64,000 bases of DNA from Escherichia phage vB_EcoM-RPN226, in the sequence record OL770073.2, one strand, 5' to 3'. A program made the translations under genes and the position numbers. Shown piece after piece: positions 2,916 to 64,000 of this stretch. Within the stretch, counting starts at the first letter, position 1, and each line of letters opens with the position of its first letter. The notes under the pieces were generated by a model. The model was given only the letters and a program-made list of their open reading frames with translations, was not told where the DNA came from and ran no database searches.

Positions 2916-4427
2916 ATGTCTATTGATATTTATAAAGATAAAAATGGCAAGCTGAACAAGAACTGGAAAATGATACACGCTAAACACCCTGAAATCATTG
3001 ATAGTATTGAGTTGCCATATGATGACCCTAAAACAAAAATCGTTTTAGCGATAAACGGAATGACAGAACTTAGCCGCTGTAAAAACTGTGGTGTTGAGAT
3101 GGATATCTCGAAGCTTGGCTCAGATTATTGCTCTAGAAAGTGTTCAGCTAACTCATCTGAAGTTAAGAGGAAAAAGCTTGATAGCATTAATCTTGAAGAA
3201 CGCGGCAAAAAAATTTCTGAATCTCTTAAAGGTAAATCCACTGCAAAATCTTGGAATACTCGTAAGAAAAAGTATGGTGAAAAAGGATTTAGCCAAACTG
3301 GGATAGAAGCTATCAAAAATAACGGAGTTAATTCTAGCGAAAAACGAATTAATACAATGATTACCCGTTATGGAGTTAAAAACCCGTTTCAACTGGAAAG
3401 CGTGATTGAAACTATATCCAAGGTTCAAACAGAGAATAACACCGCACGAAACCATTTACCCGGTTGGCTGTATGATAAGAATAAATTTAAACAAGTTTAT
3501 TCTAAATCTGGAATTAGAGGAATAATCAAAAAATCTGGCTGCGGTGCAAATTTAGCATATGTTTTATCACGTGAATATCAGCTCCGAGATATGAAAACTA
3601 CTTCGGCCGAAACAGAGATTCTGAGTTTTATTAATGAACTCGGGTTTGAAGCAGAGAAGACGCGCCAAGTGATAGCACCTTTTGAGCTGGATATCTATGT
3701 CCCAGAGAAGAAGCTTGCTATTGAGTTCAACGGTCTTTACTGGCACAGTTCAGGCTCAAAGGAACAGGACATTATTAAGAATAACCATCTCAAAAAGACT
3801 GAGATGTGTGAAGCACAAGGAATTCATCTGCTGCATATCTTCGAGAATGAATGGGTAGATGATACTAAACGCGAGATATGGAAATCGGTTATTAGAAATA
3901 AACTTGGTAAATCTGAACGCATCTATGCGCGTAAATGTAAGGTACATCCGGTTGATTCTAGAGCTGCTAAAGAGTTTTGTGAGTATAACCATTTACAGGG
4001 TCATGTCCCATTCCAGAATGCCCTGGGTTTATTCTATAACGATGAATTAGTACAGTTGGTCACATTTGGCAGAGGCCGCTATCAAGGTAAAACCGAATTA
4101 CTTCGTATGTGCACAAAACGTGGATACAGCGTAGTAGGTGGTGCTTCAAAACTTCTCAAGGATAAGAAATTTATTTCTTATGCTAACCGTAGATGGTCTA
4201 TGGGTAATGTGTATCAACAGATCGGTATGAAACAGATTGGTGTTACTCCGCCGTGTGACTATTATTTTGATAAAGGCCGTCTGTATCACAGGTCAAGTTA
4301 TATGAAACACTTATTAAAAGACAAGCTCAAAGTTTTTGATGAAAATCTTAGCGCGATAGAAAACTGTTATAACAACAAAATAAGAAGAATTTGGGATTGT
4401 GGTAATATAGTTTATGAATCCCAATAA
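2916..4427 (+). CDS. putative homing-endonuclease-like protein with Vsr/PD-(D/E)xK-type nuclease core and N-terminal Cys cluster
   Basis: 503-aa ORF antisense to the late cluster between genes 23 and 24; strong RBS taggagga; CKNCG...CSRKC zinc-finger-like cluster; FELDIYVPEKKLAIEFNGLYWHS resembles Vsr/DUF559 motif; no GIY-YIG motif. Confidence 0.55.
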   Translation: MSIDIYKDKNGKLNKNWKMIHAKHPEIIDSIELPYDDPKTKIVLAINGMTELSRCKNCGVEMDISKLGSDYCSRKCSANSSEVKRKKLDSINLEERGKKISESLKGKSTAKSWNTRKKKYGEKGFSQTGIEAIKNNGVNSSEKRINTMITRYGVKNPFQLESVIETISKVQTENNTARNHLPGWLYDKNKFKQVYSKSGIRGIIKKSGCGANLAYVLSREYQLRDMKTTSAETEILSFINELGFEAEKTRQVIAPFELDIYVPEKKLAIEFNGLYWHSSGSKEQDIIKNNHLKKTEMCEAQGIHLLHIFENEWVDDTKREIWKSVIRNKLGKSERIYARKCKVHPVDSRAAKEFCEYNHLQGHVPFQNALGLFYNDELVQLVTFGRGRYQGKTELLRMCTKRGYSVVGGASKLLKDKKFISYANRRWSMGNVYQQIGMKQIGVTPPCDYYFDKGRLYHRSSYMKHLLKDKLKVFDENLSAIENCYNNKIRRIWDCGNIVYESQ

Positions 4428-4435
4428 ACGAAAAA

Positions 4436-4467
4436 AAGGGAACCCGAAGGTTCCCTTTTTATTTTCT
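4436..4467. terminator. bidirectional terminator between 503-aa gene and gene 23
   Basis: hairpin GGGAACC-CGAA-GGTTCCC with A-run before and T-run after. Confidence 0.7.
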
Positions 4468-4477
4468 AAATTAAATC

Positions 4478-6043
4478 TTAGATACCTTTCACGTATACAC
4501 GGCGGAAGTAAGCATTTTTACCAAGGCTATTCAGAATAGAAGGCATACCGCTCTGGATGCGAGAAGCCGGAGCCTGAGCAGCGGATTCTGCAAATGGGTT
4601 GATACCGATACCGTAACGAGTTTTGAAACCCATAACAGGCTGGAAATTTTTCGGATCAGAACCACGCAGCGGAGTCAGAGCTACATATGGAGCATAGTAA
4701 ATACCAGCATCCATTTCGTTCGGACCTTTATAACCTACAGTGAAATAATCCTGTTTAGCATACTGGTCGATATATACACGGTATTTACCACCCAGAACAC
4801 CAGCAAATACTGACTTGGTAGTATCAGTGTTAAAGCCGGTAGCCAGACCCTGTGCAGCATAAGAAATGCCAGTATCAACTGAAGCCAGAACGTTAACTAC
4901 GTTACGGGAAGCGATAATGAAGTTACCTTCACCACGACCGGTCTGACGAGCAATTTCAACTGCTTCTTTGTCAATCTGGAACAACAGAGCTTTAAAGGAT
5001 TCACCCGCCCAGCGAGCACCACGAATATCAATCGGATCCTGGAAGTCAAATACACCAGCTTTAGAACCCGGAGTCAGGGTCATACCAGATTTACCAACCT
5101 GAGCTGAGTAGTTAATCCAATCAACAACTTCACGGTTGATTTCCAGCATGATTTCGGTAGCCAGAATACCAGACAGTTCAGCATCAGCATCCATACCGTG
5201 AACAGCGCGGAGGTCTTGTGCTAATTCGATAGAGTAAGCAGCTTTCAGCTGACGAGATTTAGCTTCGATAACTTGTTTATCGATACGGAAGCCCATTTCA
5301 TTCCATGGGTTATCGGTAGAACCGTTGAAACTTTCCTGGAGTTCAGCGATAGAAGTAGCCATACCTTCAGCGATTTCTACCAGTGCACCAGCTTCCATTT
5401 GTTTCTTAATTTCAGCATCTAATTTAGCTGCGTCAGTTGCACTTGAACTAATTGTTACTTGAGCAGAAGCTTGCAGATACACAGTACCAGTGTCCTGGAA
5501 GAAGTGAGTATAGATATCACCTGCTGTGGTTTGTGTGCTAGCAGCCAGAGCTGCGAATTTCTTAGCAGCACCCTGACCAGAGAACATTGCATCTGGACCA
5601 TACATTGGGTGGAATGCTTCTTTAGCACCAGAAGCGACCGGGTCTTTACCATATACTGCGCGCAGTGCGAATACCTGGCCAGTCGGGCTGTTCATCGGCT
5701 GAACACCGCAAATATCGAAAGCAATCAGGTTAGGAATAGCACGACGTACCATACCCATAACAGCTGGGCCAATCTGAGTTACTGCGCCAGAAGTCTGACC
5801 TGCAGCGATGTTGGTAGCATTGTAACCGTGGTCACCGCCGATTTCAGCTTCTGTTAAGAAAGAACCAAATGCCTGAGCAATTTTTTCGTCTTTGTACTCT
5901 GGAGCTGTCTGGAAATCTTTTTCCTGGTTTTCAAAGATTTTAGCGATAATCGCTTGTTTGCTATTAGCAATTTCCGGTAAACCTTCACCTTCCAGTAATG
6001 GCTTCCATTTGTTCAAAAGTTCAGCTTTAGTTTTGATAGTCAT
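4478..6043 (-). CDS. 23: major capsid protein gp23
   Basis: 521 aa, MTIKTKAELLNKWKPLLEGEG... matches remembered T4 gp23 almost residue for residue. Confidence 0.95.
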   Translation of the reverse strand: MTIKTKAELLNKWKPLLEGEGLPEIANSKQAIIAKIFENQEKDFQTAPEYKDEKIAQAFGSFLTEAEIGGDHGYNATNIAAGQTSGAVTQIGPAVMGMVRRAIPNLIAFDICGVQPMNSPTGQVFALRAVYGKDPVASGAKEAFHPMYGPDAMFSGQGAAKKFAALAASTQTTAGDIYTHFFQDTGTVYLQASAQVTISSSATDAAKLDAEIKKQMEAGALVEIAEGMATSIAELQESFNGSTDNPWNEMGFRIDKQVIEAKSRQLKAAYSIELAQDLRAVHGMDADAELSGILATEIMLEINREVVDWINYSAQVGKSGMTLTPGSKAGVFDFQDPIDIRGARWAGESFKALLFQIDKEAVEIARQTGRGEGNFIIASRNVVNVLASVDTGISYAAQGLATGFNTDTTKSVFAGVLGGKYRVYIDQYAKQDYFTVGYKGPNEMDAGIYYAPYVALTPLRGSDPKNFQPVMGFKTRYGIGINPFAESAAQAPASRIQSGMPSILNSLGKNAYFRRVYVKGI

Positions 6044-40240: not shown

Positions 40241-40312
40241 GGCCCTGTAGCTGGAAGGTTCAAGCAAGCGACTCATAATCGCCAGATGGTGGTTCAATTC
40301 CACCCAGGGCCA
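40241..40312 (+). tRNA. tRNA with CAT anticodon (Ile by T4 analogy, would be called Met by anticodon alone)
   Basis: acceptor GGCCCTG/CAGGGCC, anticodon loop CTCATAA, T-arm GGTTCAATTCC. Confidence 0.7.
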
Positions 40313-40319
40313 TATTTTG

Positions 40320-40360
40320 GGAACATAAATACTCTTAGAAATAGGAGATATTTATGTTCC
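40320..40360 (+). promoter_or_regulatory. 12-bp perfect hairpin sequestering segB start codon; SD in loop
   Basis: GGAACATAAATA (40320-40331) pairs with TATTTATGTTCC (40349-40360); ATG 40354-40356 in 3' arm; loop carries AGGAGA; 5' arm contains CATAAATA, a near-late-promoter. Confidence 0.6.
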
Positions 40361-41019
40361 ATTACACTTATAAAATAACAAATAAAATTAATAATAAAAT
40401 CTATATAGGCGCTCATTCTACCGAAAATTTAGATGATGGATATATGGGTTCTGGTAAATTATTAAAAAGAGCCCAAGACAAGTATGGTATAGAAAATTTC
40501 TCTAAAGAAATATTAGAGTTCTTTGACGATAAAACCTCTATGTTTGAGTCAGAAAAGAATATTGTGACTGAAGAGTTTTTAAAGCGCCCTGATGTTTATA
40601 ATTTGAAATTAGGTGGTGAAGGTGGTTGGGACCATTTAAACACTAAAGAATATTTGGATAAAAAGAAAGAAGCTTCCTTAAAAGGGGCTGCTGCTTTTAA
40701 AACCAGATTTGAGAACGACCCAGACCTTAAAGAAAAATATCGTAAAATGGGTTCAGAAAGGTTTAAACAGCTTTGGGATAATCCTAAGTATAGAGAGAAA
40801 TTTTTAAATACTAAATCTTTCTTGGGTAAGACCCATACTCCTGAAACTATTAATAAAATGAAAGAATCTCACGCCAAAAATAAACACCAACAAGGCGAAA
40901 AGAATTCCCAATTTGGTATGATGTGGATTCATTCATTAGATGAAAAAGTTTCTAAACGTATTAAGAAAACTGACCCAATTCCAGAAGGATGGTTTAAAGG
41001 TCGAAAAATGAAATTTTAA
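40354..41019 (+). CDS. segB: GIY-YIG homing endonuclease SegB-like, embedded in tRNA cluster
   Basis: 221 aa, GIY-YIG motifs YTYKITN...KIYIGAH; start codon sits in the 3' arm of a 12-bp perfect hairpin. Confidence 0.8.
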   Translation: MFHYTYKITNKINNKIYIGAHSTENLDDGYMGSGKLLKRAQDKYGIENFSKEILEFFDDKTSMFESEKNIVTEEFLKRPDVYNLKLGGEGGWDHLNTKEYLDKKKEASLKGAAAFKTRFENDPDLKEKYRKMGSERFKQLWDNPKYREKFLNTKSFLGKTHTPETINKMKESHAKNKHQQGEKNSQFGMMWIHSLDEKVSKRIKKTDPIPEGWFKGRKMKF

Positions 41020-62406: not shown

Positions 62407-62425
62407 TACTTGAAAATAATAAATA

Positions 62426-62455
62426 CCCTTATCTATTCAAGGTAAGGGTTTTATT
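62426..62455 (+). terminator. candidate terminator/attenuator between pin-like gene and gene 49
   Basis: CCCTTA-11 nt loop-TAAGGG stem followed by TTTTATT. Confidence 0.4.
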
Positions 62456-62929
62456 ATGTTATTGACTGGCAAATTGTACAAAGAAGAAAAACAAAAATTT
62501 TATAATGCACAAAACGGTAAATGCTTAATTTGCCAACGAGAACTAAATCCTGATGTTCAAGCTAATCACCTTGACCATGACCATGAATTAAATGGACCGA
62601 AAGCTGGAAAGGTACGTGGATTGCTATGTAATCTCTGTAATGCTGCAGAAGGTCAAATGAAGCATAAATTCAATCGTTCTGGCTTAAAGGGACAAGGTGT
62701 TGATTATCTTGAATGGCTAGAAAATTTACTTACTTATTTAAAATCCGATTACACCCAAAATAATATTCACCCTAACTTCGTTGGAGATAAATCAAAGGAA
62801 TTTTCTCGTTTAGGAAAAGAGGAAATGATGGCTGAGATGCTTCAAAGAGGATTTGAATATAATGAATCTGACACTAAAACACAATTAATAGCTTCATTTA
62901 AGAAGCAGCTTAGAAAGAGTTTAAAATGA
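62456..62929 (+). CDS. 49: endonuclease VII (Holliday junction resolvase)
   Basis: 157 aa, zinc-binding CLICQ...CNLCN and HLDHDH motif; matches T4 gp49. Confidence 0.9.
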   Translation: MLLTGKLYKEEKQKFYNAQNGKCLICQRELNPDVQANHLDHDHELNGPKAGKVRGLLCNLCNAAEGQMKHKFNRSGLKGQGVDYLEWLENLLTYLKSDYTQNNIHPNFVGDKSKEFSRLGKEEMMAEMLQRGFEYNESDTKTQLIASFKKQLRKSLK

Positions 62930-63469
62930 CAATTGAAAAAGAAATTGAAGGATTGATTCATAAAACTAATAAAGACCTTTTAAACGAGAATGCTAATAAA
63001 GATTCTCGTGTTTTTCCAACTCAACGGGACCTTATGGCTGGTATTGTGTCTAAACACATTGCCAAAAATATGGTCCCGTCTTTTATTATGAAAGCGCATG
63101 AAAGCGGAATTATTCATTTCCATGATATTGATTATTCCCCTGCTCTTCCATTTACTAATTGCTGTTTAGTAGATTTAAAAGGAATGCTTGAGAACGGATT
63201 TAAGCTCGGTAATGCACAGATTGAAACTCCTAAATCAATCGGTGTTGCTACTGCAATTATGGCACAAATTACTGCACAGGTTGCTTCCCATCAATATGGC
63301 GGAACGACTTTTGCGAATGTAGATAAAGTACTTTCTCCTTATGTTAAACGCACCTATGCAAAACATATTGAGGACGCAGAAAAATGGCAAATCGCTGATG
63401 CGTTGAATTATGCCCAATCTAAAACAGAAAAAGATGTATACGATGCATTCCAAGCTTATGAGTTAACGT
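62926..63469 (+). CDS. nrdD: anaerobic ribonucleotide reductase NrdD, exon 1 (interrupted by group I intron)
   Basis: ATGA overlap with gene 49; reading frame continues into intron sequence; exon/intron junction position approximate. Confidence 0.75.
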
Positions 63470-63667
63470 AAGTCAAGCTCATGTAAAATCTGCCTAAAAC
63501 GGGAAACTCTCACTGAGACAATCCGTTGCTAAATCAGCAGTAGCTGTAAATGCCCAACGACTATCCCTGATGAATGTAAGGGAGTAGGGTCAAGCGACCC
63601 GAAACGGCAGACAACTCTAAGAGTTGAAGATATAGTCTGAACTGCATGGTGACATGTAGCTGTTTAT

Positions 63668-63691
63668 CCTCGTATAAATATGAATACGAGG
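63668..63691 (+). promoter_or_regulatory. hairpin containing late promoter and Shine-Dalgarno of I-TevII
   Basis: 7-bp stem CCTCGTA/TACGAGG; TATAAATA at 63673-63680 in 5' arm/loop; GAGG SD in 3' arm; ATG at 63699. Confidence 0.6.
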
Positions 63692-63698
63692 TGAAACG

Positions 63699-64000
63699 AT
63701 GAAATGGAAATTAAGAAAAAGCTTAAAAATTGCCAATTCTGTAGCATTTACCTATATGGTAAGATTTCCTGATAAGTCTTTTTATATAGGTTTTAAAAAA
63801 TTCAAAACTATATATGGTAAAGATACAAATTGGAAAGAATACAATTCGTCATCTAAGCTTGTTAAAGAAAAGCTTAAAGATTATAAAGCTAAGTGGATAA
63901 TTCTTCAAGTTTTTGATTCTTATGAATCGGCCCTTAAACATGAAGAAATGCTTATTAGGAAATATTTTAATAACGAATTTATTCTTAATAAATCTATAGG
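63699..64000 (+). CDS. intron-encoded GIY-YIG homing endonuclease I-TevII (partial, 3' end outside window)
   Basis: MKWKLRKSLKIANSVAFTYMVRFPDKSFYIGFKK... GIY-YIG motifs; preceded by TATAAATA and hairpin-embedded SD. Confidence 0.85.
   Translation, partial: MKWKLRKSLKIANSVAFTYMVRFPDKSFYIGFKKFKTIYGKDTNWKEYNSSSKLVKEKLKDYKAKWIILQVFDSYESALKHEEMLIRKYFNNEFILNKSI

Follow-up and report, generated by a model that had tools for sequence, protein, structure and literature searches.

RESULTS

A group I intron and the I-TevII gene within nrdD

The window, by which we mean the whole stretch of 64,000 nucleotides that was analyzed, ends within a mobile-element locus in the anaerobic ribonucleotide reductase gene nrdD. 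The endonuclease VII gene (gp49, 62456-62929) lies directly upstream, and nrdD exon 1 follows it, recognized by an NRDD domain in the ORF at 62926-63471 (Pfam, E 1.2e-40). The features discussed here are collected in Table 1. The 5' splice site was placed after U63463 by comparison with T4 and with the intron-less nrdD gene of RB51 (...DAFQAYEYEVNTLF), the protein of which reads ...AYEYEVNTLF, and the intron therefore starts at 63464. At the junction, exon 1 ends in ...GCUUAUGAGU and the intron opens with UAACGUAAG; the in-frame TAA at 63469-63471 is thus intron sequence.

The Rfam group I intron model RF00028 matched 63428-63659 with 103 bits (E 1.3e-26), an alignment that spans model positions 1-253 of 253. 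A U63463·G63477 pair in P1 marks the 5' splice site, and in an RNAalifold consensus P1 columns 8-15 pair with columns 27-34, invariant across seven sequences. Between this intron and the divergent ELT1-type intron described below, 14 of the 54 predicted intron pairs are changed on both sides yet still paired, which argues that both intron lineages are under selection as ribozymes. The window contains no 3' end of the intron. The homologous intron of T4 is 1033 nt long and ends in G (...CAUUG), and its removal yields ...QAYEYEVNTLF, restoring a frame like that of RB51. Self-splicing of the T4 nrdD intron is established (PMC2988022).

On this evidence we assign the sequence to a group I intron in nrdD. 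The preliminary description had named such an intron and proposed the Rfam group I models as a check; the match clears the gathering score (50) with 103 bits, P1 has its U·G pair, the core shows compensatory pairs, and the assignment holds. Its picture of noncoding, structured RNA after exon 1 likewise stands, but the intron start it gave, 63470, is six bases late.

Table 1. Features of the nrdD intron locus, with comparable hairpins elsewhere in the window and the second intron lineage
Feature	Position	Strand	Basis or detail
nrdD exon 1 (anaerobic ribonucleotide reductase large subunit, N-terminal 179 codons plus one base)	62926..63463	+	Pfam NRDD; RB51/T4 comparison
P1: UAUGAGU (63457-63463) with internal guide GCUCAUG (63477-63483)	63457..63483	+	Sequence; RNAalifold
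Group I intron catalytic core, P1 3' strand to P9	63464..63659	+	RF00028; compensatory pairs vs ELT1-type
P9 hairpin	63642-63659	+	3' end of intron core
Probable P9.1 5' strand, CUGUUUAU	63660..63667	+	Partner AUAAACGG at I-TevII ORF end, outside window
Regulatory hairpin: 5' arm CCUCGUAU, loop AAAUAUGA, 3' arm AUACGAGG	63668..63691	+	Fold, z = -4.4
T4 late-promoter box TATAAATA	63673..63680	+	Exact consensus match
Putative I-TevII operator, 19-nt block TATGAATACGAGGTGAAAC	63679..63697	+	Homing-site likeness
Shine-Dalgarno GAGG of I-TevII	63688..63691	+	3' arm, 7 nt upstream of AUG
I-TevII ORF, first 100 codons (GIY-YIG domain), runs past window end	63699..64000	+	Pfam; T4 identity
segB start hairpin, CATAAATA in 5' arm, GGAG and AUG in 3' arm	40320-40360		-21.4 kcal/mol, z = -5.4
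Gene e (lysozyme) hairpin, two tandem TATAAATA in 5' arm, AGGAG buried	45489-45525		
Gene 49 (endonuclease VII) hairpin, AATAAATA in 5' arm, AAGG/AAGGG and AUG in 3' arm	62416-62457		-18 kcal/mol
ELT1-type intron	Phage ELT1 (L002) 3559-4609; also L005-L011		

Beyond P9, at the same position as in T4, an ORF begins at ATG 63699 with the protein sequence MKWKLRKSLKIANSVAFTYMVRFPDKSFYIGF... (MKWKLRKS...). The window holds 100 of its 258 codons (the length in T4); the visible codons are all identical to those of T4 I-TevII, the annotated GIY-YIG homing endonuclease of the nrdD intron, with zero nucleotide differences over 63699-64000. The SegE_GIY-YIG model scored 26.2 bits on the ORF (Pfam cut-off 25), and the generic PF01541 model reached 17.5, under its cut-off of 22.6. 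The motifs FTY (residues 17-19), YIG (29-31), and HEE (81-83) and the residue N97 are present and are invariant in the ELT1-type homologue. By these matches the ORF is I-TevII, as the preliminary description had named it from the MKWKLRKS start of a GIY-YIG endonuclease, and the cleavage activity of the T4 enzyme is known (PMC2988022, Table 1). Within the I-TevII coding region, over the GIY-YIG motif codons, 63750-63791 folds into a further hairpin (-15.2 kcal/mol, z = -3.7). The ELT1-type counterpart reaches only -4.1 kcal/mol (z = -0.15), so this fold is not conserved and is probably incidental.

A late-promoter box and the I-TevII ribosome-binding site share one hairpin

Between P9 and the I-TevII start codon lies a hairpin with a stem of 8 bp, formed by CCTCGTAT (63668-63675) and ATACGAGG (63684-63691) around a loop of 8 nt. 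The local fold adds an outer stem of UGUUU (63661-63665) with AAACG (63694-63698), which brings the minimum free energy to -15.5 kcal/mol (z = -4.4), a value equalled by none of 200 dinucleotide shuffles. The late-promoter box occupies the last 3 nt of the 5' arm with its first 3 nt, and the loop with its other 5 nt, ending 18 nt before the ATG. Exact copies of TATAAATA number 22 in the window against 9.4 expected, and none of 100 shuffles reached 22. The preliminary description had assigned the GAGG Shine-Dalgarno (SD) sequence to the 3' arm and a late-promoter box to the 5' arm or loop, and both placements are correct; the stem it drew exists as well, with 8 bp and not the 7 claimed.

The SD bases are predicted to be fully paired in read-through RNA that includes the upstream intron (P = 1.0), and the probability that they pair with nucleotides upstream of the predicted +1 is 1.00. 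Given the spacing typical of T4 late promoters, we infer a late start at about 63686-63688 in this phage, which would give a very short leader with the SD sequence at +1 to +3. Opening 63686-63701 costs approximately 15 kcal/mol in the read-through RNA versus approximately 5 kcal/mol in RNA that begins at 63685-63688; the start region of the late RNA is cheaper to open because the 5' arm is absent. The predicted late RNA keeps a weak alternative pairing of the SD sequence with the downstream coding sequence (approximately 5 kcal/mol). Near the I-TevII ORF, no MotA middle-promoter box (WWTGCTTYA) was seen on the + strand and no convincing sigma-70 site was found. RegB targets the motif GGAG, and a RegB cleavage site at the I-TevII SD sequence was considered and rejected, this sequence being GAGG.

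Three other genes in the window, e, 49, and segB, show the same arrangement, with a box in or beside the 5' arm of a hairpin and the SD sequence (and AUG) in the 3' arm. They differ from I-TevII in that no splicing is at stake, since they are free-standing genes, and the segB and gene 49 boxes depart from the consensus (CATAAATA and AATAAATA, respectively). The segB ORF (40354-41019) lies between tRNA genes, and its hairpin is located between tRNA-Met (40241-40312) and the ORF; the suggestion that segB follows the same sequestration logic as I-TevII was thus confirmed, with the box and GGAG/AUG placed as in Table 1. The gene 49 hairpin is the known late-expression switch of that gene. The gene e hairpin is the classic case, with the SD sequence predicted to pair with upstream nucleotides at a probability of 1.0.

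Relation to the T4 intron

The T4 nrdD (sunY) intron with I-TevII (AF158101, 43535-46385) has the same insertion site, P1, core, hairpin, box, SD sequence, and ORF. Over 537 visible bases, the intron in the window differs from that of T4 at a single position (99.8% identity), T63657 for C, which changes a G-C pair of P9 to G·U. The flanking gp49 and exon 1 sequences are clearly more divergent, differing from T4 at 33 of 1008 positions (96.7% identity; Fisher p = 1.2e-5 versus the intron), and the exon difference closest to the splice site is at 63435, 28 nt upstream. A near-identical intron in divergent flanks looks like the outcome of recent homing with a short co-conversion tract. The source phage is, by its sequence, a T4 relative (Tequatrovirus-like) with an almost unchanged T4-type intron. 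No genome in the phage collection matched 39001-64000 above about 94 to 95% identity.

Phage records that include this nrdD region number about 750, and only 24 of them have the T4-type intron; one locus identical to the T4 type was found in IMG/VR. Some carriers of the T4-type intron, among them the Salmonella phage Manna (L003, 2561-3342), fPS-2, and G8, have an extra 0.8 kb or so between gene 49 and nrdD. This insertion is annotated as a homing endonuclease in fPS-2; the window and T4 are without it.

A second, divergent intron lineage at the same site

In 46 phage records, among them ELT1, HY03, JB75, and SHSML-52-1, a divergent nrdD intron is inserted at the site used by the T4 type. The Rfam group I model scored 70.6 bits on this ELT1-type intron. 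Its core is approximately 71% identical to that in the window, with about 71 to 74% nucleotide identity over this region, and its endonuclease, which also begins with MKW, shows 56% amino acid identity to I-TevII. Only these two I-TevII lineages, all inside nrdD, were recovered by tblastn of the phage collection. We found no description of an ELT1-type nrdD intron lineage in the literature searched.

The hairpin architecture is kept in the ELT1-type intron. The TATAAATA box overlaps the 5' arm at its end, and the 3' arm, SD sequence, and spacer are identical to those of the T4 type. The 5' arm reads UCUUGUAU in place of CCUCGUAU, with two C-to-U changes that retain all 8 pairs through G·U, a pairing that only the sense-strand RNA allows. 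Since these changes break the DNA palindrome and keep the RNA pairing, the stem appears to be selected at the RNA level. The ELT1-type stem has 11 bp and a nested 6-bp hairpin, with 9 extra nt between box and SD sequence; prediction again places the SD sequence in a paired state (P about 1), and a transcript begun after the box would lack the 5' arms.

This conservation is supportive but thin: the stem comparison concerns only two lineages and shows two one-sided changes, and the invariance of the 3' arm precludes any double compensatory change. RNAalifold missed the hairpin on a MAFFT alignment, in which the 9-nt indel had misaligned the 5' arm, and recovered it on a shorter alignment. That a second lineage keeps the regulatory design is nonetheless modest comparative support for the proposed I-TevII mechanism. 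The endonuclease gene has decayed in some ELT1-type introns. In 215Ecol030PP (PP328843), only endonuclease residues 202-255 are left, and in vB_EcoM_F1 (MT682712) the endonuclease match is in two pieces.

Possible pairing of the I-TevII start with the end of the ORF

The partner strands of 63660-63709 lie outside the window and were taken from T4 (L001, 4531-4558). In T4, pairing of CUGUUUAU with AUAAACGG would give a P9.1 helix that encloses the I-TevII ORF, and the stop codon of I-TevII falls within P9.2 (GUAGAG/CUCUAC), 21 nt upstream of the 3' splice site. The P9.1 assignment draws on T4 (L001, 4551-4558), on the P9/P9.1/P9.2 plan of ORF-less relatives in IMG/VR, and on the fold of a mini-construct. 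Those relatives carry a plain P9.1, then GG, a P9.2 hairpin, and UGAACA...G. Literature searches for published models of sunY P9.1/P9.2 returned nothing relevant.

In T4, the last codons of the ORF, approximately 840 nt downstream, are complementary to the start region made up of the I-TevII spacer, AUG, and first codons (63692-63709), and in both lineages the ORF end is the best partner of the start region in the rest of the intron. The predicted helix reaches -14.4 kcal/mol in the T4 type, matched by 0.7% of random 40-mers; the ELT1-type helix has 20 bp and reaches -20.1 kcal/mol, matched by 0 of 3000. Four substitutions separate the lineages, which are not independent, within this helix, and all of them keep or improve pairing. 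In the three-way junction of the mini-construct, formed by P9.1, the SD hairpin, and the start-codon helix, the SD sequence and the AUG are both paired. As a tentative model, the I-TevII start might be locked twice, in a junction that would hide the AUG, close the ORF loop, and bring the 3' splice site to the core.

DISCUSSION

A probable late-promoter and hairpin switch for I-TevII

We interpret the locus as a mobile nrdD group I intron in which a late promoter combined with a ribosome-binding-site hairpin would switch I-TevII on, and we put the probability of this reading at roughly 0.9. Early and in the middle of infection, transcripts begun upstream of nrdD would read through exon 1 into the intron, and the hairpin at 63668-63691 would form as soon as it was made and bury the I-TevII SD sequence. 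Ribosomes would then not load, the intron would fold and splice, and NrdD would be made. Late in infection, gp55-RNA polymerase would initiate at the TATAAATA box in the 5' arm and loop, and RNA from about 63686-63688, lacking the 5' arm, would leave the SD sequence free so that I-TevII could be translated. For this switch, the intron, the identity of the ORF, the hairpin, the box, and the energy gap between the two RNAs were computed here; use of the late promoter and late expression of I-TevII come from the literature. The arrangement probably serves to exclude ribosomes from the intron until it has been spliced.

The combination of promoter and ribosome-binding-site hairpin has been published for I-TevI, I-TevII, I-TevIII, and segB (Gott et al. 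1988; Edgell, Gibb, and Belfort 2010, PMC2988022, Fig. 5). In the three intron endonucleases, the ribosome-binding site is sequestered by a very stable RNA structure, and I-TevI transcripts from the late promoter are without the sequence needed for that structure (PMC2988022). The T4 late promoters were mapped by primer extension by Gott et al. (1988), as summarized in PMC2988022, and the published evidence for the I-TevII switch consists of promoter mapping and structure prediction (PMC2988022). Uzan and Miller (2010) agree, with genes e, soc, and 49 and I-TevI as the documented cases (PMC3014915). The reading of the hairpin as translational sequestration, already put forward from the sequence, is supported here and matches the switch in both of these sources (PMC2988022 and PMC3014915).

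A close parallel is the T4 td intron with I-TevI (Gott et al. 1988; Gibb and Edgell 2010), likewise a GIY-YIG ORF in a group I intron with a ribosome-binding-site hairpin and a late RNA that lacks the 5' arm, although the gene and the intron loop that bears the ORF differ from those of I-TevII. Early translation of I-TevI through the intron disturbs folding and splicing (PMC2988022). Deletion of the hairpin, a direct functional test published for I-TevI and mobE (PMC2988022), leads in I-TevI to early translation and defective splicing (Gibb and Edgell 2010), and autorepression through an operator has also been shown for I-TevI.

The nrdD intron and the I-TevII switch are thus already known, textbook T4 biology in a T4 relative, and their occurrence in this phage is conceptually nothing new. 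They are a classic case of a selfish endonuclease gene whose expression from within a host gene does that gene no harm: the block on translation would last through intron folding and splicing, to be lifted on late transcripts only. The switch motif can be recognized by a reader from the raw sequence.

Alternative explanations of the hairpin

The hairpin could instead be mainly architectural, an arm of the ribozyme periphery in a three-way junction with P9.1 and the helix that closes the ORF loop. It would then serve to draw the distant 3' splice site toward the core, with burial of the SD sequence a side effect. The ORF-less IMG/VR relatives carry a simple P9.1 hairpin at exactly the position of this hairpin, CUGUUUAU (63660-63667) can pair in T4 with AUAAACGG at the ORF end, and ORF-deleted mini-constructs fold as P9.1, hairpin, and start-codon helix. 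However, the ELT1-type intron, in which no P9.1-like pairing is evident, still has the SD hairpin and the TATAAATA box, and a purely structural arm would have no need for a late-promoter box so sited that the late RNA loses the 5' arm. We regard a mainly architectural role as unlikely, and architectural and SD-burying roles are not mutually exclusive. Far less probable still, and in our view close to negligible, is that hairpin, box, and SD sequence coincide by chance in AT-rich DNA or that the hairpin is an intrinsic terminator. AT-rich phage DNA does fold easily, but no shuffle of the 200 was as stable, the late-promoter consensus is exact, and the architecture is kept in a lineage with approximately 26% nucleotide divergence. 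As to a terminator, a scan flagged only two hairpins, that of gene 49 and the adjacent P9 (63642-63659); the 3' arm of the SD hairpin is not followed by a U-run, and expression of nrdD requires transcription on to exon 2, so that a terminator at the SD hairpin was rejected.

A role at the DNA level has somewhat more in its favor, though it too is doubtful as the explanation of the hairpin. As shown for I-TevI, I-TevII might bind a look-alike of its homing site at its own late promoter and start and repress its own transcription, the inverted repeat being secondary. An I-TevII operator has been proposed (PMC2988022, Fig. 4B), and 17 of 21 positions agree between TATGAATACGAGGTGAA-ACG (63679-63698) and the homing site TATGAGT/ATGAAGTGAACACG, which spans the insertion point, a score equalled by only 1.5% of random window segments. 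Moreover, the two intron lineages share no other identical stretch as long as TATGAATACGAGGTGAAAC, not even within the core. Yet this 19-nt block is already constrained, as it includes the SD sequence, the spacer, and the 3' arm, and in the ELT1-type intron it lies 9 nt further from TATAAATA. The similarity to the homing site is modest, leaving the operator putative, and the two 5'-arm substitutions (C to U) disrupt the palindrome in the DNA but preserve RNA pairing. An operator is best seen as an additional layer and not as a replacement for the RNA switch.

Related introns in viral metagenomes

Among IMG/VR loci, in which start calls are noisy, SD pairing at 28 ORF starts after P9 did not differ from that at 533 control starts (Mann-Whitney p = 0.25). 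The motif GAAGATATAGTCTNANCTGCATGG, which spans J8/7-P7-P9, occurs in at least 120 IMG/VR viral contigs (L014-L133). Most of these loci look ORF-less, with compact P9.1 and P9.2 hairpins, and together the contigs look like a large family of related phage introns.
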